This document shows positions 16,532 through 46,959 of a DNA stretch of 64,000 nucleotides, piece by piece. The position numbers and the translations under genes are program-made. The number at the start of each line of letters is the position of its first letter. Within the stretch, counting starts at the first letter, position 1. The stretch is from contig CANKJN010000005.1 of assembly GCA_947482345.1 (NCBI GenBank), positions 102 through 64,101 on the forward strand, read 5' to 3'. The notes under the pieces were generated by a model that saw nothing but the letters and a program-made list of their open reading frames with translations, ran no database searches and was not told where the DNA came from. The DNA is from Spartobacteria bacterium. Lineage in GTDB: Bacteria; Verrucomicrobiota; Verrucomicrobiia; Chthoniobacterales; UBA6821.

Positions 16532-18088
16532 GTGAGTAATCTCAATACCCAGCGACTCGGCCTTTTTCTTGTGATGGGGCTGGGCATACTTTTTGCGCTC
16601 TTTGCAGGGAATTACGTGGCCGAAGAGGATTACACTCCCATTGCCATCGTGTTCGGAGGACTAGTGGCTATCACTCTGGTCTTCAGTGTCGGTACCAATG
16701 CCTATCTGCTTATACCGATGTGCTGGCCCTTGATAGGCACTATTCATCTTCTGCCGCTGCCGTTTAATGTGCGACAGATCGCCATGATCTTTGCCAGTCT
16801 CATCTTTGTTTCCGGCGTCATTTTCAAGAGGGCTGGGGGTAAAAAAGTCCCGTTTGATATCCTCGATCTCTGGGTTTGGATCAATGTGGGATACTTAGTG
16901 ACAGTCTTTTTTAGAAACCCTGTCGGGATCAATGCCTTGGGGGGGGATCGTGTCGGAGGGAGGCCATACGTTGATGTCGCACTTGGATTCATGGCCTATC
17001 TAATCCTGAGGCGGGAGACCATTTCCCCAAAGATGGCACGGCTGATTCCTTTAGTTTGGCTATCGGGCGAGATTATTAATGGAATGGGTGGACTAGTCGG
17101 TCTTTACTTTCCTTCCATTGGTTCACAAATAGGAATGCTTTACAGCAGCTTCCTTCCAGGCTTTGGTAAAGAGCAGGTGGGGGCCATTGTCGGAGAAGAT
17201 CGTTTAGTTTCGTTGCAAGGGGCAGGTGCAACTTTGGCTCTGTACATTATCTGCAGTGTAAATCCGACGCATCTGATCCGCCCTCAAAACATGGTGAAGT
17301 TGTTTGGATATTTGCTAGGAGTCCTTCTCGTCATGCTTAGCGGGTTCAGAAATGCGCTCTTTAACGTTTTTCTCATGACGGCCTTTGGTGCCATGATGGG
17401 AGATCGCTTTATCGGTATCCTTAAGGTTATTGTAATTGTATTTTTGGGGGCATTAGCAGGTGTTCTATTCAGTTACAGCAGCATCAATCTTCCATGGACC
17501 TTCCAGCGCACCCTCTCATTTCTGCCTGGCAACTGGGATCCGACGGCCGTTGAGGCGGCAAAGGGCAGTTCAGAATGGCGCTATGAGATGTGGAGGTCAG
17601 CGCTGAGTACCGACAGATATATCCACAACAAGCTCTTGGGCGATGGGTTCGGAATGTCCCGTCAGGACTATGAGCGCGTTCTGGACGCCAGTCTTGGTGG
17701 AGTCGGCTTCATCGGTGAGAGTGCTACACAGGAGCAATTCATGGTCAGCGGCCAGTTTCATAGCGGCCCGGTCTCTTCAATACGATTTGTAGGCTATGTT
17801 GGATTAGCGCTTTTTCTCATCCTCTTATTCATGTTGGCACAGACTGCATACCGCATGACTCTGAAATCTCGCGAAACTCCTTATCTTTTTATATCAATGT
17901 TTATAGGTATTCCTGTAATTATTTATCCTATCTTTTTCCTATTTGTCTTTGGTGCCTATGAGCATGATATCATCAATATGTTATTTTTTGTAGGAATGAT
18001 CAAAATGATCAATGCCTCACTGAGGAAATATCATGAAGATTCGGAAAAAAGTAACATGATCCCTCCAGCACCAAGTCTCTCGCTCTAA
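16532..18088 (+). CDS. Wzy/O-antigen ligase-like polysaccharide polymerase
   Basis: Polytopic membrane protein with SGFRN, a periplasmic loop (SSEWRYEMW...LLGDGFG) and FHSG...GYVG. GTG start. Confidence 0.75.
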   Translation: MSNLNTQRLGLFLVMGLGILFALFAGNYVAEEDYTPIAIVFGGLVAITLVFSVGTNAYLLIPMCWPLIGTIHLLPLPFNVRQIAMIFASLIFVSGVIFKRAGGKKVPFDILDLWVWINVGYLVTVFFRNPVGINALGGDRVGGRPYVDVALGFMAYLILRRETISPKMARLIPLVWLSGEIINGMGGLVGLYFPSIGSQIGMLYSSFLPGFGKEQVGAIVGEDRLVSLQGAGATLALYIICSVNPTHLIRPQNMVKLFGYLLGVLLVMLSGFRNALFNVFLMTAFGAMMGDRFIGILKVIVIVFLGALAGVLFSYSSINLPWTFQRTLSFLPGNWDPTAVEAAKGSSEWRYEMWRSALSTDRYIHNKLLGDGFGMSRQDYERVLDASLGGVGFIGESATQEQFMVSGQFHSGPVSSIRFVGYVGLALFLILLFMLAQTAYRMTLKSRETPYLFISMFIGIPVIIYPIFFLFVFGAYEHDIINMLFFVGMIKMINASLRKYHEDSEKSNMIPPAPSLSL

Positions 18089-23301: not shown

Positions 23302-24435
23302 ATGTATTGCGATGAAATTATTGTTGTGGAGCCAGGTGCTGATAGTGTTGTATCTCATCAACTTGAGAAACTGGAATTATTCTTAGAGGGATTTAATAGT
23401 TTAGGAATAAAGTGTAATATATTCTGCAACAAGAATCCCAAAAAGGATTTTGGAAGAAATAGTGTAAGTTGTAATAAGTTATGGGTTAATCGACTGCGGG
23501 GTATTTTACCCGGGAAAATATATGTATGGTTTTTAGAATTCTTATGTTATTATCGAGCTTTTGTTAGTGCAAATAAAAAGCAGATGATGGTTTTAGGGCT
23601 TACTGTTTCAGCCCCGTATGGAGTTCTCATTGCCTACTTGCTATCCCGTCCTAAATATGGCGTAACTATTCGTGTTCTTAATTTTGGACTAATTTCTAGT
23701 TCTGCTGGGTCTTATCAGGTCAACAAGAAGTGTATTAATTCATGGAAAATTCTAATTTCCAATGGAGTTAATATTGTCAAGTTAACAAGCACTGGAAATA
23801 GCCTTCTGTGTACTAATGTAACAAATAAAGTGGGATCAATTAATACAATTCCGGAAATAGTGAGTTGTCCAAATATTGGTGTCAGGATAAAATCTGCTCC
23901 CTTAAGTCTTCTTGTAGTAGGATGCGATGATGGTCATAGAAGAAACGCTCTCATGGCTCTTGTTAGAGGAGGTTATTTAAGAGGCCTGAAGGAGTTGCAC
24001 ATCCATGCACCGGGGCATTCATATGCCAGGCTAGCTGATGGAAGTAAGTATTTGCCGCCGCTAGGAGTAAAAGTTAAATTTACTAATAATTATATAACAG
24101 GAGAGGAGCTCACGACTATGGTCCGGAGCTCATCTGCTTGTCTTATTGGATACCAGCAAGGTTTCTGCAACCCAAGCAGTGTACTCTATTTATCTGTGAT
24201 GGCTGGCGTTCCTGTTCTTTCTAGCAACTTCCCTGATGGTATTTACTCATTTGACACTTGTGGAAAGTTAGGGGAAATGTTCAAAATGGAGACTGAGGGA
24301 GACCTGTCCCGTGCATGGGGCCGTTTTCTTGAATGGGGGGACCTTGAATATGGTAAGTTTTCCGAGGCGCGTGAAAAACTTAGAGCTATGGTAAATCCAT
24401 TAACTGTAGCCAGACGACACCTTGAAGTGTATTAA
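23302..24435 (+). CDS. Hypothetical protein, probably a divergent GT-B glycosyltransferase; AT-rich
   Basis: C-terminal SSVLYLSVMAGVPVLSS resembles the GT-B nucleotide-binding segment; the rest is unrecognised. Confidence 0.5.
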   Translation: MYCDEIIVVEPGADSVVSHQLEKLELFLEGFNSLGIKCNIFCNKNPKKDFGRNSVSCNKLWVNRLRGILPGKIYVWFLEFLCYYRAFVSANKKQMMVLGLTVSAPYGVLIAYLLSRPKYGVTIRVLNFGLISSSAGSYQVNKKCINSWKILISNGVNIVKLTSTGNSLLCTNVTNKVGSINTIPEIVSCPNIGVRIKSAPLSLLVVGCDDGHRRNALMALVRGGYLRGLKELHIHAPGHSYARLADGSKYLPPLGVKVKFTNNYITGEELTTMVRSSSACLIGYQQGFCNPSSVLYLSVMAGVPVLSSNFPDGIYSFDTCGKLGEMFKMETEGDLSRAWGRFLEWGDLEYGKFSEAREKLRAMVNPLTVARRHLEVY

Positions 24436-37221: not shown

Positions 37222-40143
37222 ATGACCATCTCCATCATCACTCCAAGTTACGGCCAGCTCGACTGGCTGAAGCTGTGTGTTGCTTCAGTGGCTGATCAGA
37301 ATCAGCCACTGAAGCAAGGGAGCTGGGAGCTGGAAGCTGGAAGTTTGGGGGGAGATGCACCTGCGGGGCAGGGGGTGCGAGTGGCTGAGTCAAAGGTGGG
37401 TAAAATTGCTAATTCATCATTGGAAATTGTTGATTTAGAAGAGGGATCCGCAGGGAACCCTCAGCAATCAGTAATTAGAAATCAGGAATCACCAATCGCC
37501 TCCCCGCTTCGCGTGGAGCACATCATCCAGGATGGGGGGACTCCGGGGATCGAGGAATTCGCCAGGGAGTTGGGTGAGGATCTCAAGTCGCGGTATGGTG
37601 GAGATTTTGTTTCAGACCTTCAAACCTTCGAACTTTTGCACCTTCGCACTGCGTCCGGTTACACGCTCCGCGTGTTCAAGGAACCGGACGCCGGCATGTA
37701 CGATGCGATCAACAAGGGGATCGCCAAAATGAGTGGCGATCTCTGGGCATGGATCAACAGCGACGAGCAGTATCTTCCCGGGACGCTGGCCTATGTGGTG
37801 CGGTGGTTTGAAGGACGCCGCGATGCCGACATTCTCTGCGGCGATGCCCTGCTCACGGATGACTCCGGCAAAGCACTCTCCTACCGCAGGATTGTGACTC
37901 CGTGGTGGAATCATACACGGTTGGTGCATCTTTCCTCACTGAGTTGCGCGAGTTTTTACCGGCGTTCCATCGTGGAGAGGGGAGGTGTTTTTGACACGGT
38001 TTGGCGCTCCATCGGGGATGCCGAGTGGATGGCCCGGATGATGAAAGACGGTGTCCGGATCGAGGCTTGCGGGAAGCTCTTCTCGACTTTCGCCTTCACG
38101 GGTCAGAACACGAGCGAGTCTCCGCTTGCCAGGAAAGAATCCGACGAATGGAAGAAGGCGGCTGACGCCCCCTCCGCATGGATGATGCTGCCGGTGATCG
38201 GAGTGCATCGTTGCCGGAAATTTCTCGCAGGCGCCTATCGTCGCCGCGATGTGAGTTATGCGATCCACCGTCAGGGCGAAGGGCGGAAGGAATTTCGTGC
38301 CGAGGGGATCGGTTGGGACTGGCCCTCCGCCCTATCCTCGATCCAGTCGGCTGTTTCCAAGATGGTTCCCAACCCTCATGTGCCTTATGTCGACTCTACG
38401 AGAGTCTTAGGCACATCCCTCATGGAGACAACCTATGAGGGTCTCTCCACGGTTCTCCTGGATGCGGGATCAAGTGGTGGGGGAGTGCTCGCCGTTGATT
38501 TTGCGAACACCCATGTCGTGACCATGCGGCGTCATGATCCCAAGTTCATGAATCTCACGGCGTGCATCGACCTGATCGCTCCGGATGGGATGCCCTTGGT
38601 GTGGGCAATGAATGCCAAGGGTGCGAATCTTGAGGATCGGGTTTACGGGCCGACCTTCACGCGGCGTTTCCTTGCATCATGTCCCGCGGATAAAACCCAC
38701 TACCTGGTGGGAGGCTCGGAGGAGTGCGGTCGCAAATTCCGGGAGCAGATGCTGGCGTTGAACCCTTCGCTGAATTTCGTGGGCGGGTATCATGGTCGCT
38801 GTTCCGGTGATGGTGAATTGGACGATCAGAAGAAGGTGAAGGCCGAGATTCTCGAAAAACGCCCCGATTTCATCTGGGTGGGCTTGGGGACACCCAAGCA
38901 GTATGCATGGATCCATCGGATCAAGCTGCAGCTCGATCACGGGGTGCTGTTGGCGGTCGGCTTTGCCTTTGATGTGAATGCGGGGATGAAACCCGATGCT
39001 CCCGCATGGATGCAGCGGCTTGGTCTCACCTGGATCCACAGGATGGCCTCCGAGCCGGGGCGGCTGGCAGGACGGTATCTGAAATGGAATACGCTCTTTA
39101 TCAGCTATTGGATTGCCGAATTCGTCGGCGGAGGGGTTCGCTCGGTGAAACTTCATCTCCGCAACGCATTCCTGCGCTTCGTGGATCTCCTTTCGCGGGA
39201 GATCTTCGATCTGGAGGATGGTCGCCCTCTGGGCCGTGCCCTCCTATTCGGACAGGGTGGTGGAGTCCGCGTCATCGGGCATGAGGGGCTGCCACCGCTC
39301 ATTCCCAGATTCATCCCTCAGGAGCGCCTGACCTACTGGAAGCAGTCGATCGGTTTCACGACCCCTCCTAGGCCGGACTTTCCAAGGCTCGAGGGGGTGT
39401 CCGCCGCCCCTGTACCCTCATCACCCCGCGTGCTGAATGTGGTGCTCACCCACTTGGACGGAGACCGGTTGGTCCGCACCAGGGAGCGCTGGAGGGATGT
39501 CTGCAGGGAAGAGGATCTCTGGATCGCCTTTGGTGGGAAACAACGGAACTTCCGCAATCTCGGGATGGAAAGATCCGTCTTCATCGGGGATGCGGGTCTG
39601 AGAAGGGAGGACAACCAGAGGGAGAAGCAATCTTACACCGGCATCTTTCACGCCATGGCACCCGTGGTCGAGAGGGAGAGGCCCGATTACATTTATCTCT
39701 GTGAGTATGATCATGTGTCCCTGCGCTCTGATCTGAATGCCCTTCAGGTGGCCGAGATCACCGCCGAGGGAGCCGATGTGATGGGGCACTGGCTCTACCG
39801 TGTGGACGGGACCAGCCACTACCACATGCTCTATCATCAATCCGATCCGGGCTTCCTGCGTTACTGGCAGTCCGTTTCACGCCGGGAGGAGAAGGGTGTC
39901 GTGCTCTCGATGTTCGGAAGCGGATCGCTCTGGTCGAGGGAGGCCTTTCTGGCCATCGCCTCAAGGACACAGCAGATCCCCTGTTATCTGGAGCTGTACC
40001 TCCCCACGCTGGCCCATCACCTCGGCTACCGGGTGAGATGCTGGGATGAGTCGCGCCACATGATCTCCAATCTACCCTCGAGGAAATGGACGATTGACGA
40101 GGCCATGAACAGGGATTGCCTGACCATTCATCCCGTGAAATGA
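37222..40143 (+). CDS. Multi-domain glycosyltransferase: GT2 + WecB/TagA/CpsF (GT26) + small unknown domain + putative GT-A-like domain
   Basis: SIITPSY, GMYDAINKG, WINSDE (GT2); PDGMPLVW, VGLGTPKQ, GFAFD (TagA); C-terminal LCEYDH...HPVK. One uninterrupted 973-aa ORF. Confidence 0.85.
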   Translation: MTISIITPSYGQLDWLKLCVASVADQNQPLKQGSWELEAGSLGGDAPAGQGVRVAESKVGKIANSSLEIVDLEEGSAGNPQQSVIRNQESPIASPLRVEHIIQDGGTPGIEEFARELGEDLKSRYGGDFVSDLQTFELLHLRTASGYTLRVFKEPDAGMYDAINKGIAKMSGDLWAWINSDEQYLPGTLAYVVRWFEGRRDADILCGDALLTDDSGKALSYRRIVTPWWNHTRLVHLSSLSCASFYRRSIVERGGVFDTVWRSIGDAEWMARMMKDGVRIEACGKLFSTFAFTGQNTSESPLARKESDEWKKAADAPSAWMMLPVIGVHRCRKFLAGAYRRRDVSYAIHRQGEGRKEFRAEGIGWDWPSALSSIQSAVSKMVPNPHVPYVDSTRVLGTSLMETTYEGLSTVLLDAGSSGGGVLAVDFANTHVVTMRRHDPKFMNLTACIDLIAPDGMPLVWAMNAKGANLEDRVYGPTFTRRFLASCPADKTHYLVGGSEECGRKFREQMLALNPSLNFVGGYHGRCSGDGELDDQKKVKAEILEKRPDFIWVGLGTPKQYAWIHRIKLQLDHGVLLAVGFAFDVNAGMKPDAPAWMQRLGLTWIHRMASEPGRLAGRYLKWNTLFISYWIAEFVGGGVRSVKLHLRNAFLRFVDLLSREIFDLEDGRPLGRALLFGQGGGVRVIGHEGLPPLIPRFIPQERLTYWKQSIGFTTPPRPDFPRLEGVSAAPVPSSPRVLNVVLTHLDGDRLVRTRERWRDVCREEDLWIAFGGKQRNFRNLGMERSVFIGDAGLRREDNQREKQSYTGIFHAMAPVVERERPDYIYLCEYDHVSLRSDLNALQVAEITAEGADVMGHWLYRVDGTSHYHMLYHQSDPGFLRYWQSVSRREEKGVVLSMFGSGSLWSREAFLAIASRTQQIPCYLELYLPTLAHHLGYRVRCWDESRHMISNLPSRKWTIDEAMNRDCLTIHPVK

Positions 40144-40219
40144 AAACTAGGGAACCTAGAGGGGCGAGAATCGGATTGATGATCTCCCTGCGGCGGGTGA
40201 GATTGGGCAATCGTACGAC

Positions 40220-40921
40220 ATGATGAAAAACAGCGCCATTTCAGCCAGTAATCCCTTTTTCCGCGTTGCGGTCGTAGTCCTGCTGTCCGTCGTGACGGTT
40301 GTCTCCTTCCGGTTTGCCGCCATGCCAACCTCTGCCGGTGGGGCAGGTGTCATCATGAGTCTTCCCTCATCGGTCGGTGCCTTCTCGGGACGTGATCAGG
40401 AGACATCCGAGGGGGAGCGAACGGTGCTCCCCAAGGACACGGAGATCATCAAGAAAGTCTACACCAACCCCGTTGGCGAAATCATCAATGCCCAGATCGT
40501 GCTGTCCGGTGCCGAGAAGCGCAGCATTCACCGTCCCGAGCTCTGCCTGCCGGCCCAAGGGTGGTCGATCACTGGCCGGCAGTATCTTTCTGTCAAGCTG
40601 GCCGACGGGCGAACCATCACCGTGATGTGTGATGCGATCACCAGGCAGGTCGAGGTCGCGCCCGGGGTCAGCAGGCCCCTGACCAGCCTTTTCTGTTATT
40701 GGTTTGTCGGCGACGGGGCCACTACGGCCTCCCATGTGAAGAGAATTCTGCTCACAAGTTGGGATCGCGTCGTCCATCACAAGAATCACCGCTGGGCCTA
40801 CATCGCGGTGAGTGCCCCGGTGCTCGAAGGGTTCCTTCCCGGAGGGAAAAGTGTGAGAGGCACTGAGGTCATGATTTCGGATTTTATCGCTCAGATTGCA
40901 CCGGGGATCATGAAGCGCTGA
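40220..40921 (+). CDS. epsI: EpsI-family exosortase-associated protein
   Basis: N-terminal transmembrane segment, SIHRPELCLPAQGW, YWFVG. Confidence 0.8.
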   Translation: MMKNSAISASNPFFRVAVVVLLSVVTVVSFRFAAMPTSAGGAGVIMSLPSSVGAFSGRDQETSEGERTVLPKDTEIIKKVYTNPVGEIINAQIVLSGAEKRSIHRPELCLPAQGWSITGRQYLSVKLADGRTITVMCDAITRQVEVAPGVSRPLTSLFCYWFVGDGATTASHVKRILLTSWDRVVHHKNHRWAYIAVSAPVLEGFLPGGKSVRGTEVMISDFIAQIAPGIMKR

Positions 40922-40990
40922 GCGGTTCATGAAGAATTGTTGATTGTTAATTGTTAATTGCTTCCGCCCCCAACTGAAACCAACGGATTC

Positions 40991-41395
40991 ATGCCTAGCT
41001 ATCGATGGCCTGAGGAACTGCCCTGCTATCAGGAAGCGCGCAGATTTCGTATTGCGGTCGCTGACTTATGCATGCTGTTACCAAAAACAGAGGAATACCG
41101 TCTTAAAGATCAGATGCTTCGTGCAGCCCGCTCCGTGACGGCAAATATTGCCGAGGGTTTTGGGAGGCATCATCATCAGGAAAATATCCAATTTTGTCGG
41201 CAGGCGAGGGGATCGCTGATTGAAATGAGGGATCATCTCAATACTGCCGCAGATGAGGGTTTTGTGGAGAACGTGCAAGTTGGTGATGTTCTCAAGATGC
41301 TTGAATCATCCCTTGCATCCCTGAATGGATATCTTGTCTATCTCAAGAATTGCGCTTCTGATTCCAAACTCAAACAATCACCAATTAACAATTAA
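40991..41395 (+). CDS. Four-helix-bundle protein (23S rRNA IVP-like family)
   Basis: EEYRLKDQMLRAARSVTANIAEGFGR...ARGSLIE; flanked by AATTGTT/AACAATT heptamers. Confidence 0.9.
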   Translation: MPSYRWPEELPCYQEARRFRIAVADLCMLLPKTEEYRLKDQMLRAARSVTANIAEGFGRHHHQENIQFCRQARGSLIEMRDHLNTAADEGFVENVQVGDVLKMLESSLASLNGYLVYLKNCASDSKLKQSPINN

Positions 41396-41414
41396 CAATC
41401 TCCTCCTTTTGCCG

Positions 41415-42449
41415 ATGCCCTTTCCCAATCAGCAATCAGCAATCAGCAATCAAAAGTCGTTTGCGCCGACAATTCTTGCTGCGGGTGTCGTCTCCCTGTT
41501 GATCACCTCTCTCTTCCTGTCGGTCCAGTACAGCTACGGGATAGGAACGACCACGTACTCTCTGGCCCAGTATATCTGGCGGACTTGGAATGAGAGCGAG
41601 GACATGGGACACGGCATGATCGTCGTGCCGGCCGCCCTGTTCCTGATCTACCATGATCGGGAAAGGCTTCTTTCAATCACTCCCAAGCCGGGATGGGGAG
41701 GATTGGTGCTCCTGATCACAGGGTTGATGATCTACTGGTGCGGTCATTTGGCCGACGTCACCTTTGCAGGACTTTTCAGCCTGATCGTCATCCTGGCCGG
41801 AACCATCTGGTGGTTGCTCGGTTGGGAGTTCCTGAAGGCGCTTTCCTTTCCCATCGCCTTCCTGATTTTTGCGATCCCCTTTCCCGGCATCGACTCCATG
41901 GTGGCGCTTCCCCTGCGCTATCTGATGTCGAAGCTCGGGGTGGTGATCTTGAATCTCCTCGGAGTACCCGTGGTGCTGGTGGGTACGGGCATCCTCTCGG
42001 CTCCCGATGCGGCGCAGCACCTTGCAACGGGGCAGAAATTCGCCGTCGATGTGGCCAATCCGTGTAGCGGGATCCGTTCGCTCTTCGCTCTGATGATGGT
42101 GGGGGCGCTTTTCGCCCATTTCACGCTCAAGGGTGCCTGGAGGAAGTGGATTCTCTTTCTCTGCACGCCGCCGCTGGCCGTGCTCGGCAATCTGGTGCGA
42201 ATCCTGATGCTCACGCTCGGAACGGTTGCCTTCGGAAGCGAATTCGCGTTAGGGAAAAACCCTCTGGAGCATCCCTCCTGGTTCCACATGCTGGCCGGTT
42301 ATCTGGTCTTCATGGTGGCGCTTGCCGGAATGATGGGGGTTGCCTCCCTGCTCGGGCGTCTCCCCGGTGGTGTCCGAAGCAGCGCACCGTCGCCTGCGGC
42401 GCGGCCGAACCAAGGGGTTCCCGAATCGGATTCCGTCGATCGCTACTGA
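41415..42449 (+). CDS. Exosortase (EpsH family)
   Basis: HGMIVVP, VANPCSGIRSL (Cys), NLVRI (Arg), WFHMLAG (His). Start placed at ATG 41415. Confidence 0.9.
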   Translation: MPFPNQQSAISNQKSFAPTILAAGVVSLLITSLFLSVQYSYGIGTTTYSLAQYIWRTWNESEDMGHGMIVVPAALFLIYHDRERLLSITPKPGWGGLVLLITGLMIYWCGHLADVTFAGLFSLIVILAGTIWWLLGWEFLKALSFPIAFLIFAIPFPGIDSMVALPLRYLMSKLGVVILNLLGVPVVLVGTGILSAPDAAQHLATGQKFAVDVANPCSGIRSLFALMMVGALFAHFTLKGAWRKWILFLCTPPLAVLGNLVRILMLTLGTVAFGSEFALGKNPLEHPSWFHMLAGYLVFMVALAGMMGVASLLGRLPGGVRSSAPSPAARPNQGVPESDSVDRY

Positions 42450-42465
42450 TTGGTGTGATCCCTAA

Positions 42466-42844
42466 GGAAGCGCTGATTAAATCCCATGAAGGCCGCTGAA
42501 GAGCATTTGCTGATTTTTGAAGGCGCGAGTGCTGGGCGATACCCGCAGCGGTCTCGCCCGAGCGAGCAACGCCACAAAAATCGACAAATGGCTTCAGCCC
42601 TTCGGGTTGCGGAGATCCAAGCCAAAGGCCACAAAGCCTTTGGCTTCGTGCCGTGGCACGGGGGCCAACTGTGTTGGCTTGGCACTTTGCTTGCCCGGCC
42701 GTTGCTTCGCATCCGTTACGGCAGCCCGCAGAGGGGATGCTCGTGCCAAGCCGCCTTACCCACGGCCCATGGCTTGCCCGGTCGTTGCTTTGCATCCGCT
42801 ACGGCTTCCCGCAACGGCCTCTATGCGATTTAATCAGCGTTTCC
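42466..42844 (+). mobile_element. IS5-type MITE, copy 2 (379 bp)
   Basis: Same TIRs and arms as 3821-4094; CTAA duplicated at 42462-42465 and 42845-42848. Confidence 0.88.
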
Positions 42845-42872
42845 CTAAGTCCCTCCCTGATCCGCCTGCAAG

Positions 42873-44141
42873 ATGAATTCCCCCGCAGCGAGCCAGGAAA
42901 GGGAGCATCACAGACCCCGGATCCTGCAGATTTTCTCACGCTATCGGGAGTATGGCGGCGAGGAGGGGAGTGTCTACCGGATCGGTGATGCGCTGCATCG
43001 AGATTTCGACATCGGCTTCTTCCTGGCATCGAGCGGGGATGCCTTTTCCGGCGGGGTTCTCAAGAAGGGCCTCTCTACGATCAAGGCATTCTCCAATTGG
43101 ACCATCGTGGATCAGTTGCGCCGTTACCAGCAGCTCGGGCGGTATGATTGCTGGCTGATTCACAATGTCTTCCCGGTCATGTCTCCGGCTGTCTACGAGC
43201 TGGCCTTCACCTTGAGGATTCCGATCATTCATTATCTGCATAATTACCGGATGGGGTGCGTCAACGGTTTCTTTATGAATCATGGAGAGCCGTGCCAGCG
43301 GTGCATGCACGGGAGCTTCCTTCCCGCATTCCAGACCGCATGCTGGCATGGGAGTCACGTTCAGAGCGGCATCATGGGTGCCGTCACTAGCCGTGCACGG
43401 GGCATGGATCTCTTTCACCGGGTGCACCACTGGGTTGCGATCAGCAGTGCGCAGAAAAAAGAGCACGTGGAGATGGGGATCCCCGCTGACCGGATCTCCG
43501 TCATTCCTCATTTTTTTGAATCAAAGGGGGAGGCGCCCGATTATCCGGATCAGGGAGATGTGCTCTTTGTCGGAAGACTCTCCGCCGAGAAGGGAGTGGA
43601 TCGTCTTCTCATGGCATGGGAGGCCATTCAGGATTGCGGGAGAACCCTCTGGATCGTGGGTGACGGGCCCGAACGCAGTAAACTCGAGGAGATGGTACGA
43701 AGCAGAAGTCTCCGGAGTGTCCGCTTCACCGGCTTTCTGGAACGGGAGGCGATGGCATCAATCTGGGAAAAAGCGGCCTGTTCGATCGTCCCCTCGGTCT
43801 GGAAGGAGCCGTTCGGCATGGTGGTGCTGGAATCATGGGCCAAGGGGCGCCCCGTCATCGCCCACCGGATCGGTGCGCTCGAGGAGATTGTCTCCGATGG
43901 AACCGACGGCCTTCTCGTCCCCGTGGATGAACCCGGGGCATTGGCGGAAGCGATCCTCTCGATCCTTAATGACCCTGCTCGCGGGAAAGCCATGGGGCGT
44001 GCCGGAGCAGAGAAGCTTAGACACCAATATTCCAAGCAGGTTTGGCAGGATGCGATACAAGGGATTTTTGCGCACTTGCCATCACGCAATTCGTTCCATG
44101 AAAAGTCGAAGGTCGAAGGTCGAAAGACGAGTGTCGATTAG
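42873..44141 (+). CDS. GT4 glycosyltransferase
   Basis: GGEE, HNVFPVMSP, GRLSAEKG, EPFGMVVLESWAKGRPVI. Confidence 0.9.
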   Translation: MNSPAASQEREHHRPRILQIFSRYREYGGEEGSVYRIGDALHRDFDIGFFLASSGDAFSGGVLKKGLSTIKAFSNWTIVDQLRRYQQLGRYDCWLIHNVFPVMSPAVYELAFTLRIPIIHYLHNYRMGCVNGFFMNHGEPCQRCMHGSFLPAFQTACWHGSHVQSGIMGAVTSRARGMDLFHRVHHWVAISSAQKKEHVEMGIPADRISVIPHFFESKGEAPDYPDQGDVLFVGRLSAEKGVDRLLMAWEAIQDCGRTLWIVGDGPERSKLEEMVRSRSLRSVRFTGFLEREAMASIWEKAACSIVPSVWKEPFGMVVLESWAKGRPVIAHRIGALEEIVSDGTDGLLVPVDEPGALAEAILSILNDPARGKAMGRAGAEKLRHQYSKQVWQDAIQGIFAHLPSRNSFHEKSKVEGRKTSVD

Positions 44142-44396: not shown

Positions 44397-45119
44397 ATGA
44401 ATCGCCTCTCTAAGTATAAAATCGATCCGGTAGGCGAAGCCATGCTGCCGTTCGGTTATCTTCTGCTCGTCCTCACCCTCGACTTTATCACCCCCAAGGC
44501 GGTGCTCACACCCCTCTTTGGAATCGTGGGGTTGCTGGTCTTCGCTTACTGCCTGACACCTGGTTGGATGACATTTTGGTCATCGGTCTATGCCGTCGTG
44601 GTGACGGCGCTTTTTATCTCTCCGGGCATTTACATGTTCTTCCACAAAGAGGCTCCCCAGGCGGATTTCCTCACGCCCTATGCGAGAAGCGGCACATTCA
44701 TCGCCGGCGCCGCGCTCTCTGCATCCCTTTGTGCCGCGCTCTCGAGGGCACTGGCCATGAACGATGATTTCAGGGACATGCTCGAGAAGCTCACGCTCCC
44801 CGTGATCACCTCGAACCATGATGGTAGGATCATCTTTCTCAATCGCGCCGCCATGGATGCTCTGGGATGGGGGGGCGATCATAACTTGGCGATTTCCTAT
44901 TTCGACGCACTGGCACCGAAGGGAGTGCAGGGCGAGTTGATAGCGTCTTATCTGAGACGTTTTGACCAAGGGAATGCCGGGGAGATGCCCCCTCTCAATC
45001 TGGAGTGTCGCGGGCGGCGCTGTCTCGGATCCACGCGAATGATGGAATCTAAATCCCCCCGATTATTGCTGACCATGCTCGATTTTGAAAGCGCCACCGT
45101 ATCGGAAAAGAGAGCATGA
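44397..45119 (+). CDS. Membrane protein with a C-terminal PAS-like domain and no output domain
   Basis: Hydrophobic N-terminal half; PVITSNHDGRIIFLNRAA PAS motif. Confidence 0.65.
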   Translation: MNRLSKYKIDPVGEAMLPFGYLLLVLTLDFITPKAVLTPLFGIVGLLVFAYCLTPGWMTFWSSVYAVVVTALFISPGIYMFFHKEAPQADFLTPYARSGTFIAGAALSASLCAALSRALAMNDDFRDMLEKLTLPVITSNHDGRIIFLNRAAMDALGWGGDHNLAISYFDALAPKGVQGELIASYLRRFDQGNAGEMPPLNLECRGRRCLGSTRMMESKSPRLLLTMLDFESATVSEKRA

Positions 45120-46312
45120 ATGGTAAATCGCCCCGCCTGCTTCTTGTCGACGGGCACTACTATCTCTACCGATCCTTTTTCGCAATCCGGGGACTGACGA
45201 ATTCCAAGGGGGAGCCGACGAATGCAATCTACGGATTCGTGAAGGCCCTTCGGAGGATGCTGAAGGATCTCAGGCCAGATTATGCCGCGGTGATCTGGGA
45301 TGCCGGTCTGCCCGAGCGTAGGACGCAACTTCAACCCGACTACAAGCAGCACCGCGACGAGATGCCTGACGATCTGGAGGTCCAGCAGGAACCGATCCAA
45401 GAGATCGTCCCGCTTCTGGGGGTCGCCAGCGTTTTTCTCGAGAACCATGAGGCGGACGACCTGATCGCCTCCTATGTCGTGAAGGCCCGAAAGGAGGGCA
45501 TCGAGTGTGTGGTGGCGACCAATGACAAGGATATCCTCCAGATGGTCCGCGACGGGGTCTCCATCTACTCCACGGCCAAGGCGGACGTGGGGGAGGGGAA
45601 CGGGGGATTCAAACTTCTTGGGATTCCCGAGGTGACGGCGAAGTGGGGGGTCGAGCCCTCCCTCATCGCCGATGTCCTGGCCCTCACTGGAGACTCGGCC
45701 GACAATATTCCCGGAGTCCCGGGAGTGGGGGGCAAGACCGCCGCGAAGTGGATCAACCAGTACGGGTCGCTCGATGCCATCCTGGTGGGGTCGGGACTTG
45801 ATCCCAAGGTGCGTGAGAAAGTGGAGGCCTCCCGTGCTCAGATCGAGAGCAACCGGGCCATGGTGGCCTTGGATCTGGATCTGCCTCTGCCACTCCCGAT
45901 TCACGGGATGAAGGTATCGCCGCAATATCCGGAGCTGGTCGAGGCATTGAGGCGGTGTGAGTTTCGTTCGCTGACGGCCGAGGTGGAGAGGGAAGCTGCG
46001 GAGATGAAACCTGAAGTTGGAAACCTGAAACCTGAGTCGGCGGAGGGAGTGAAAAGTGAAAAGTCGGGAGAGCGACAGAAGTCGGAGGTCGGAGCTCAGG
46101 GGTCAGGAAGCACCAGCCAGAGTCCGAAAACAGAATACCCGGATGTGGCGGAGCGATTAAAAATTGCTGACTCTTCATTGCTGATCGAAGAAAGAAACGG
46201 CGGAGCGAGCGCGCCTGATGAGGGCGGGTGTCTCGAACCAGCAATGAGCAATAATCAATCAACAATTCCTGCCCCGAGGCCTTCCGCCGCCGAGCAGGGG
46301 GAGCTTTTCTGA
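45116..46312 (+). CDS. Stand-alone 5'-3' exonuclease / flap endonuclease with low-complexity tail
   Basis: LLVDGH, TNAIYGF, YKQHR, EADDLIAS, TNDKD, GDSADNIPGVPGVGGKTA. No polymerase domain; ends in QGELF. Confidence 0.9.
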   Translation: MNGKSPRLLLVDGHYYLYRSFFAIRGLTNSKGEPTNAIYGFVKALRRMLKDLRPDYAAVIWDAGLPERRTQLQPDYKQHRDEMPDDLEVQQEPIQEIVPLLGVASVFLENHEADDLIASYVVKARKEGIECVVATNDKDILQMVRDGVSIYSTAKADVGEGNGGFKLLGIPEVTAKWGVEPSLIADVLALTGDSADNIPGVPGVGGKTAAKWINQYGSLDAILVGSGLDPKVREKVEASRAQIESNRAMVALDLDLPLPLPIHGMKVSPQYPELVEALRRCEFRSLTAEVEREAAEMKPEVGNLKPESAEGVKSEKSGERQKSEVGAQGSGSTSQSPKTEYPDVAERLKIADSSLLIEERNGGASAPDEGGCLEPAMSNNQSTIPAPRPSAAEQGELF

Positions 46313-46959
46313 TGAGAACCTCGCTTGTTCTGGGAGCCGGCCGCGGCCCTCGTCTGGAGGTGCTGGAGTTGATCCGTCGCTCGCTCGATGGGATGAGCGT
46401 GAAGGCGCTCTCCTCGGAACTTGGGATGAGCTACATGGGGGTGAAGGCTCACTGCATCGCTCTCACCTCATCCGGATACCTGACCACCTGGAGGCAGCCT
46501 TCTGTAAAGGGGCGCCCCTTGATGCTCTATCGGCTAACCGAATCCGGTGAACAGCTCTTCGCCGAGTCGGGACAGGATCTCGCAGTAGAGTTGCTCGGGG
46601 AAGCCGCCGGCCTCTTCGGTGCAACAGCCCCTCAGAAGTTGCTGATGATGCATTTTCGGAAGATCGCGACCGGATACCGCGGACTGATCGACTCAGAGGA
46701 CGGGCTCGGCAAAGTGCGTGCTTTCGTCCGGATCCGTGATGCCGAGGGGAGGATCTCAACTTTGCACGAGGGACAGACTCTCGAGATCCGGGAATGTCAC
46801 AATCCTCTCTCCTCAGTCATGAGGAACTACTCCGGAGCAACGGCCATGGAAGAAAGCATGATTGCCGAGGTGCTGGGCATCCCGGTCCGCCGCCGCGAAG
46901 AGGGAGGGGTGGTAGTCTTCTCCCTGGGTCCGGATGGCTTGAAGATGCCAGTTTACTGA
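46312..46959 (+). CDS. SufR-like ArsR-type HTH transcriptional regulator
   Basis: LSSELGMSYMGVKAHC...GRPLMLYRLTESG; IRECHNP. Confidence 0.7.
   Translation: MRTSLVLGAGRGPRLEVLELIRRSLDGMSVKALSSELGMSYMGVKAHCIALTSSGYLTTWRQPSVKGRPLMLYRLTESGEQLFAESGQDLAVELLGEAAGLFGATAPQKLLMMHFRKIATGYRGLIDSEDGLGKVRAFVRIRDAEGRISTLHEGQTLEIRECHNPLSSVMRNYSGATAMEESMIAEVLGIPVRRREEGGVVVFSLGPDGLKMPVY

Follow-up and report, generated by a model that had tools for sequence, protein, structure and literature searches.

In the textbook scheme of bacterial lagging-strand maturation, DNA polymerase I (Pol I) couples a polymerase and a 5' nuclease in one chain. In archaea and eukaryotes the flap endonuclease (FEN) FEN1 is tethered to the sliding clamp, and in bacteria peptides of the QxxLF or QL(S/D)LF type bind the beta-clamp DnaN; such clamp motifs occur on many replication and repair proteins. 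A FEN-family nuclease that interacts with a clamp, gp45, is also known from phage T4: its RNase H makes an N-terminal clamp contact, is reported to depend in vivo mainly on gp32 and belongs to a different sequence family. No characterised bacterial stand-alone FEN is known to be recruited by the clamp, and a literature search of incomplete coverage turned up none described as carrying a clamp-binding motif, which is absence of evidence only. In this work, we analyzed a stand-alone FEN of 398 residues encoded in a stretch of 64,000 nucleotides (hereafter the window) from a Spartobacteria bacterium (assembly GCA_947482345.1, contig CANKJN010000005.1, positions 102 to 64,101 of the forward strand). 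The protein ends in the pentapeptide QGELF, which is probably a DnaN-binding motif that tethers this 5' flap nuclease to the clamp.

In its proposed function, the protein is most similar to the FEN1-PCNA pair. The PCNA-interacting peptide (PIP) box of human FEN1, QGRLDDFF, also begins with Q-G. Like the window protein, the FEN1 of archaea and eukaryotes combines a 5' flap nuclease with a flexible C-terminal extension and a Gln-initial peptide of clamp-docking type (archaeal PCNA1-PCNA2-FEN1 complex, PMC1636371; human PCNA-FEN1 structures, 8yjh and 8yjv), and both belong to the same structural superfamily (Foldseek E ~1e-10). However, PCNA is a trimer and DnaN a dimer, and the PIP box reads Qxx[LIM]xx[FY][FY], whereas the window FEN has QxxLF followed by the stop codon. 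Furthermore, the window FEN falls in the bacterial Pol I branch and not in that of FEN1, the resemblance being convergent. A PIP box was rejected as a description of the tail because the protein stops after QGELF and has no aromatic pair; identity with FEN1 was likewise rejected, on account of the separate sequence branch (18 bits with the fen_arch model TIGR03674, far below its cut-off of 352) and the absence of a PIP box.

The closest relative in sequence is the 5' nuclease domain of Pol I (E. coli; Taq, 1taq), with which the metal ligands and the helix-3-turn-helix (H3TH) are shared. In Pol I the nuclease is covalently linked to a polymerase, whereas the window FEN has in its place a tether predicted to be disordered and a putative clamp motif. 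The stand-alone FENs E. coli Xni/ExoIX (3zd8), Mycobacterium smegmatis FenA (6c33) and Bacillus subtilis FenA share the fold (Foldseek E 1e-16 to 1e-19) but coexist with Pol I, and a clamp-binding tail has not been reported for them. The nearest bacterial precedents for a link between the Pol I family and DnaN are lineage-specific QxxL[FL] motifs lying in a disordered stretch, described for Mycobacterium tuberculosis Pol I (QLSLLDD; bioRxiv 10.64898/2026.09.19.751633) and for actinobacterial PolA2 (QSSLF; PMC12926913). These motifs are internal, belong to the Klenow or vestigial exonuclease part and tether a polymerase, in contrast to that of the window, which is C-terminal and carried by an isolated 5' nuclease in bacteria of the Planctomycetes-Verrucomicrobia-Chlamydiae (PVC) group.

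Architecture and active site of the nuclease

The open reading frame (ORF) at 45116-46312 on the plus strand runs from an ATG start to a TGA stop, and the ORF list, Pfam and its homologues identify it as the gene of a stand-alone Pol I-type 5'-3' exonuclease or FEN. Two Pfam domains account for the nuclease: an N-terminal PIN/resolvase-like domain at residues 7-154 (45134-45577; PF02739, E 3e-47, 160.8 bits against a cut-off of 34.3), with the metal ligands D12, D62, E112, D114, D115, D137 and D139 and the helical arch at about residues 70-100, and an H3TH DNA-binding domain at residues 179-270 (45650-45925; PF01367, E 3e-25, 88.8 bits against a cut-off of 40), which includes the metal ligands D193 and D196. 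In the 398 residues, Pfam found neither a DNA_pol_A nor a 3'-5' exonuclease domain. The last helices of the nuclease module, at residues 271-297 (45926-46006, ...EFRSLTAEVEREA), were delimited by alignment with Taq Pol I and PolA and by the helices of an AlphaFold2 model, which lie at 271-280 and 284-297 and close the module; they are homologous to the end of the Pol I 5' nuclease domain, the alignment with Taq Pol I running to residue 284. In this model the predicted local distance difference test score (pLDDT) is 82-98 across residues 1-297, with a dip to 70-73 in the helical arch.

The active site is intact. In an alignment of 59 homologues, D12, D62, E112, D114, D115, D137, D139, D193 and D196 are invariant, as are the stretches T191-G192-D193 and D196-N197-I198. 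The carboxylates align with D18, D67, E117, D119/120, D142 and D144 of Taq Pol I and with its GD..DN motif. They also correspond to the metal-binding carboxylates of E. coli Pol I, given as D13, D63, E113, D115, D138, D140, D185 and D188 in a part of the supplement of PMC12926913, the full set being present.

The highest NCBIfam scores, 278 and 251 bits, belong to the two equivalog models of DNA polymerase I (cut-offs of 720 and 600), which the protein matches over only the first ~290-310 of their ~890 positions (ends 287 and 313). By sequence, the solved structures that come closest are those of the Taq Pol I N-terminus (residues 12-284, 171 bits) and M. smegmatis Pol1; FenA and ExoIX rank next. 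The nearest structures of the predicted model are all FEN-family nucleases (Foldseek E down to 3e-21), the matches including the Taq N-terminus, M. smegmatis FenA, ExoIX, T5 FEN and FEN1. Identity with Pol I itself was rejected, as the polymerase and proofreading domains are absent from the polypeptide and its stop is conserved in more than 230 homologue clusters, and so was orthology with Xni or FenA, as the scores stay below the equivalog cut-offs of these families (134 bits against 261 for the Xni model; 148-160 bits against 305-434 for the PRK14976 solo '5'-3' exonuclease' variants). Judged by its sequence and predicted fold, the protein appears to have the features that define a bacterial Pol I-type 5' nuclease, and a catalytically competent enzyme of this type existing as a separate chain is the best-supported reading. 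The original prediction, made from the DNA letters and a list of their ORFs, had described a complete 5'-3' exonuclease domain with acidic motifs and no polymerase domain, a description borne out by the presence of PF02739 and PF01367 alone and by the invariant carboxylates.

Conservation of the C-terminal pentapeptide

Beyond the nuclease module, residues 298-393 (46007-46294, plus strand) form a hypervariable linker that is enriched in S, E, G, A, P and K and predicted to be disordered, with pLDDT values below 50 and low column conservation. Beyond about residue 300, the pLDDT of the model is 37-48 and secondary structure is absent. The protein closes with AAEQGELF followed by TGA, and the pentapeptide Q394-G-E-L-F398 (46295-46309, plus strand), the proposed beta-clamp-binding motif, fits the Qxx[L/M][F/L] (QL[SD]LF-type) clamp-motif consensus. 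The low-complexity linker of roughly 100 residues ending in EQGELF-stop, noted in the original prediction, is thus present, with ~96 residues and predicted disorder.

A homologue search returned 3844 matches at E<1e-20, of which the best 120 clusters were all stand-alone proteins of 294-433 residues with 63-100% identity. In this close set, the terminus is QGELF in 111 clusters, QAELF in six and QGGLF in one, and no more than one residue follows it. A second set of 120 clusters was seeded with a distant representative (P0136) and comprises proteins with 44-62% identity to it; a Q..LF-type terminus is found in 113 of these, at the end of linkers of 12-32 residues. Altogether, 231 of the 240 clusters end in Q-x-x-L-F with 0-3 residues after the motif (QGELF in 199, QAELF in 11 and other Q..LF-type peptides in 21), so that the terminal QxxLF on which the clamp idea of the original prediction leaned is conserved. 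Within these 231 motifs, Q1 is conserved in 100%, L4 and F5 in 99% each, G2 in 207 and E3 in 220. Columns of the close set have a conservation of 0.65-0.96 within the nuclease domain but only 0.10-0.20 within the linker, and the values recover at the very C-terminus. The linker itself is almost unalignable and varies in length from 25 to 127 residues in the close homologues and from 12 to 127 across both sets. Furthermore, across 17 genomes the codons vary for Q (CAG/CAA), G (four codons), E (GAG/GAA) and L (CTT/CTG/CTC/TTG) while the peptide stays constant, and selection therefore acts at the amino-acid level.

A wider search, with the nuclease domain alone against 1.84 billion representatives at 50% identity, recovered both solo-sized and full-length Pol I proteins. 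A Q..[LMF][FL] peptide lies within the last ten residues of 14 of the 57 solo-sized representatives and of none of the 44 full-length Pol I proteins; when the tails were shuffled (1000 shuffles), the mean was 0.45 and the maximum 4, so that the observed count exceeds chance. The solo-sized proteins without the motif are mostly polA fragments at contig ends or frameshifted pieces, and group with Pol I in the tree. That tree, a single neighbour-joining tree without bootstrap and with a Pol I sequence as its root, places the 32 genuine solo FENs in one monophyletic group, apart from the Pol I N-termini. The nearest full-length Pol I matches are ~40% identical to the window FEN.

The terminus is not uniform throughout the family. 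Double motifs occur in three clusters, P0122 (QGELF...QTELF), P0213 (EPSLF...QMSLF) and P0270; QGDLW replaces the pentapeptide in Terrimicrobiaceae (L021, L022), and (S/T)PYLPI does so in a sub-clade (P0311-P0317 and L086). Together with FENs that have no tail, these variants provide natural comparative controls within one order. A second, semi-conserved element, NNQSTIP, is found in the tail of the window protein at about residues 379-385 (46250-46270). Its form NN[EQ]QST[IV]P precedes QGELF by ~10-13 residues in the closer relatives of the window protein as well as in some that are 67-84% identical (carriers are P0007-P0012, P0077, P0078, P0080 and P0114), and could be a second short docking motif. 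No ORF other than the FEN was found to have a QxxLF tail in the window or in three related loci (L082, L084, L086). As a separate observation, one cluster (P0127, 578 residues) has a FEN domain partly duplicated in tandem, after which comes a piece similar to the 3'-5' exonuclease region of Pol I; this is an unusual duplication or else an artefact of assembly.

The pentapeptide as a putative DnaN-binding motif

The published clamp consensus is QL[SD]LF or Qxx[LM]F, with QADMF in the Pol III alpha subunit, QLGLF in Pol II and QLNLF in Pol V as examples (quoted in bioRxiv 10.64898/2026.09.19.751633). Its anchoring positions are the conserved Q1, L4 and F5 of the FEN tail. In addition, orthologues exchange QGELF for canonical QL[SDN]LF motifs at the same terminal position, since the second set includes QLSLF (twice), QLNLF and QLDLF, along with QLELF, QMELF (three times), QMDLF, QPDLF, QQELF and QDELF. 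The placement of the motif, at the end of a tether predicted to be disordered, is the usual setting of a clamp peptide. Further evidence comes from DnaE: the protein encoded on the same contig as a FEN of the family (P0381) has QQNLF at residues 909-913, just before the oligonucleotide/oligosaccharide-binding (OB) domain, and that of a second related genome has QQSLF at 908. This position is equivalent to the QADMF site of E. coli alpha, the canonical clamp-binding site. It follows that this lineage has a clamp that recognizes QxxLF peptides, and that a non-aliphatic position 2 is normal there. Taken together, motif conservation, exchange with canonical motifs, the QQ[NS]LF of DnaE and the predicted disorder of the tail argue for direct recruitment of a bacterial FEN by the clamp, as the original prediction had proposed. 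DnaN tethering is well supported by this comparison of sequences, and we consider it quite probable. In the window itself, neither dnaN nor other clamp-client genes were found.

Several observations weigh against this reading. First, position 2 of the pentapeptide is Gly, where an aliphatic residue is usual, although non-aliphatic residues also stand there in the QADMF of alpha and the QQNLF of the lineage's DnaE. Second, for solvent-exposed positions of a clamp motif, G2 and E3 vary less than expected, which may reflect an extra or a different constraint. Third, in loci of the window type the GGR-GAG codons form a Shine-Dalgarno-like GGAG ~10 nucleotides upstream of the overlapping start of the next gene, and this may add a constraint on the motif codons. 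Fourth, FENs of three Chthoniobacterales lineages (L017-L019) have no tail, which is therefore dispensable in some lineages. In addition, the window FEN has no replication-gene neighbours, and B. subtilis FenA shows no replisome dwell or recruitment (PMC12724664).

The third point bears on an explanation in which no partner is involved at all, namely that the protein is a truncated or split polA remnant with a read-through tail, or that its last codons are kept by the ribosome-binding site of the downstream gene. The best matches are indeed Pol I N-termini, stop and next start share the overlap TGATG, and the GGGGAG or GGAGAG of the motif codons is Shine-Dalgarno-like. However, more than 230 homologue clusters have the same stand-alone architecture with an intact active site, and QGELF is kept where the next gene is ~100 nucleotides away, absent or on the opposite strand (L010, L013-L015, L082, L084). 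Because the peptide persists without a close downstream gene, and because a ribosome-binding site leaves the invariance of Q, L and F unexplained, this constraint is not the main cause of conservation; the synonymous changes in the Q, G, E and L codons speak against it as well. Both a polA pseudogene with read-through and conservation by the Shine-Dalgarno sequence alone were rejected on homologue architecture, motif counts and codon variation, and we regard this explanation as scarcely credible.

The second point would be expected if the C-terminal peptide docked onto another partner, such as the single-stranded DNA-binding protein (SSB), DnaE/tau, ligase, RNase H or a gap-filling polymerase, and its likeness to QxxLF were coincidental. 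The near-invariance of G2 and E3 (207 and 220 of 231) is unusual for clamp motifs, and the (S/T)PYLPI and QGDLW termini of the sub-clade and of Terrimicrobiaceae also fit such a partner. Nevertheless, orthologues carry QLSLF, QLNLF or QLDLF instead of QGELF, the invariant positions are the three that anchor clamp peptides, and the DnaE of the lineage has QQ[NS]LF; even (S/T)PYLPI and QGYLPL resemble the hexapeptide class of clamp motifs (QLSLPL/QLVLGL type). Docking to another partner is accordingly unlikely in our judgement. The C-terminus of SSB reads DDDIPF, and mimicry of it was rejected as a candidate because the tails of the short-linker clade (...GSKQGELF) are not acidic.

The tail might also act in cis, as an autoinhibitory peptide that folds back on the nuclease, or set the amount of FEN as a C-terminal degron. 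The hydrophobic dipeptide at the end of a disordered tail and the natural occurrence of tail-less variants would suit either role, but the AlphaFold2 model has no confident contact between tail and nuclease domain (tail pLDDT 37-48), and a degron would not be expected to undergo the specific exchange for QL[SDN]LF. QGELF is not known to match any degron class. Both roles appear very improbable, and DnaN tethering is the preferred reading of the tail.

If DnaN tethering holds, bacteria reached the FEN1-PCNA solution independently, and the beta-clamp interactome, a drug-target hub, gains a new client. Such tethering would also help to explain how Okazaki fragments are completed in lineages reported to be without Pol I. 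The clade of tail-bearing FENs is large and environmentally abundant, and the system is simple, with one 398-residue protein, one pentapeptide and one clamp.

Possible role in Okazaki maturation and genomic setting

A survey of more than 3000 complete genomes described a significant fraction of Verrucomicrobia without a Pol I orthologue, in which a solo FEN is always kept (PMC12926913); its main text and parts of its supplement make no mention of a clamp motif on solo FENs. In B. subtilis, DnaE performs strand displacement and, with FEN, completes a model Okazaki fragment in vitro without Pol I (PMC13082043). The original prediction had suggested that the FEN may replace the exonuclease domain of PolA. 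If the Verrucomicrobia survey holds for this organism, loss of Pol I is likely, rather than a polA merely without its 5' exonuclease.

Under DnaN tethering, L397 and F398 would insert in the hydrophobic cleft of one DnaN protomer and Q394 would contact the adjacent subsite, so that the nuclease would ride the clamp at the 3' end of the growing or just-finished Okazaki fragment. From there, the tether of ~96 residues (as short as 12 in relatives) would be long enough to bring the nuclease to the next fragment ahead, at its 5' RNA primer or flap. The second cleft of the DnaN dimer would stay free for a polymerase, most likely Pol III alpha (DnaE), which would displace the flap while bound to the other protomer, and the cut of the nuclease would leave a nick for ligase. 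In this way, the coupling of polymerase and 5' nuclease that Pol I achieves in cis would be rebuilt in trans, convergently with PCNA-FEN1, the C-terminal tail supplying the coupling that is not seen for B. subtilis FenA. We propose only tentatively that, in the maturation of Okazaki fragments, the FEN also stands in for a Pol I that is missing. It is equally tempting to speculate, with somewhat less than even confidence, that a large clade of the PVC group, comprising Chthoniobacterales, other Verrucomicrobiota and Kiritimatiellia, does without Pol I and uses a eukaryote-like DnaE-DnaN-FEN 'clamp toolbelt'. Should this be true, bacteria would have in the toolbelt their own convergent equivalent of PCNA-Pol delta-FEN1, with the tail as the molecular adaptation through which loss of the Klenow part became tolerable.

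The distribution of the family was followed by a genome scan. Close relatives (60-95% identity) occur in metagenome-assembled genomes (MAGs) labelled Chthoniobacterales, 'Spartobacteria', Terrimicrobiaceae or Verrucomicrobiia, and the weaker matches (33-41%) are all ordinary polA N-termini of Actinomycetota and Proteobacteria. An exact family member (P0001) is present with the same gene order in the MAG GCA_947460155.1 and in metagenome assemblies. The divergent cluster P0213 belongs to Kiritimatiellia, and the tail-bearing FEN therefore extends beyond Verrucomicrobiota, at least to this class within the PVC group. One further QGELF-tailed solo FEN (P0355) lies on an 86-kb contig that NCBI labels Oscillatoria amoena NRMC-F 0135. 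We doubt this cyanobacterial label because the relatives are all Verrucomicrobiota; the source is probably a bacterium accompanying a non-axenic cyanobacterial culture.

In several related genomes the FEN lies near replication genes. It follows dnaE on the same strand, at a distance of 1.5-2 kb, in two soil genomes of Chthoniobacterales type (L082, 5036-10915; L084, 4628-10912), where a conserved protein of 351-352 residues without Pfam match is encoded in between; in L082, dnaG and rpoD are also near. One relative placed in this way is P0381 (57% identical to the window FEN), encoded on a 2.37-Mb contig ~1.5 kb downstream of dnaE. Elsewhere, on the contig of P0136 and in L086 (6228-10933), the FEN adjoins a gene pair resembling gyrB/parE and gyrA/parC. 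Neighbours such as dnaE or type II topoisomerase genes fit a core replication role for the FEN.

These data also bear on the remaining alternative, an accessory repair nuclease of the Xni/ExoIX or FenA kind that works beside a full Pol I and uses its clamp tail in mismatch or ribonucleotide excision repair. Many bacteria hold Pol I and a second FEN (PMC10191290), M. smegmatis FenA has been studied in NucS mismatch repair (PMC11551767), and the neighbourhood in the window is unrelated to replication. Against it stand the synteny of dnaE and FEN in related genomes and the retention of a solo FEN by Verrucomicrobia without Pol I (PMC12926913). The protein also keeps the full metal-ligand set and scores far higher with the Pol I models (278 and 251 bits) than with the solo-exonuclease and Xni models (134-160 bits, each below its cut-off). 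Finally, the solo clade of the neighbour-joining tree contains no Pol I N-terminus, and the best full-length Pol I is only ~40% identical. An accessory role thus seems rather doubtful to us, without being far-fetched.

In the window, the FEN is translationally coupled on both sides. Upstream, a gene for a membrane protein with a PAS domain (44397-45119, plus strand; 240 residues) has a stop that overlaps the FEN start (ATGA). Its product, hydrophobic near the N-terminus, has one PAS domain (Pfam) but no output domain. The gene is found upstream of the FEN in only five of 20 related loci, and the two are probably co-transcribed. Downstream, the start of a winged-helix gene (46312-46959, plus strand; 215 residues), distantly SufR/ArsR-like with weak HTH_34 and SufR matches, overlaps the FEN stop (TGATG); no relative of its product was found in the PDB. 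This gene directly follows the FEN in 17 of 20 Chthoniobacterales loci, and the two form a conserved gene pair without an obvious functional link.

The other genes of the window encode transporters, an exosortase/exopolysaccharide (EPS) cluster, amino-sugar catabolism, Tex and similar functions. Between about 16000 and 26000, the G+C content is 0.40-0.50, compared with 0.55-0.65 elsewhere, and this block holds glycosyltransferases, a polysaccharide-biosynthesis (flippase-like) gene and two ORFs without Pfam match (16532-18088 and 23302-24435); it looks like a surface-polysaccharide island that was horizontally acquired or is evolving fast. Just upstream of the FEN operon, at 37222-44141, lie genes for a WecG/GT2 fusion glycosyltransferase (973 residues), an EpsI-like DUF3485 protein, the exosortase EpsH and a GT4 glycosyltransferase, which point to a PEP-CTERM protein-sorting and EPS locus.

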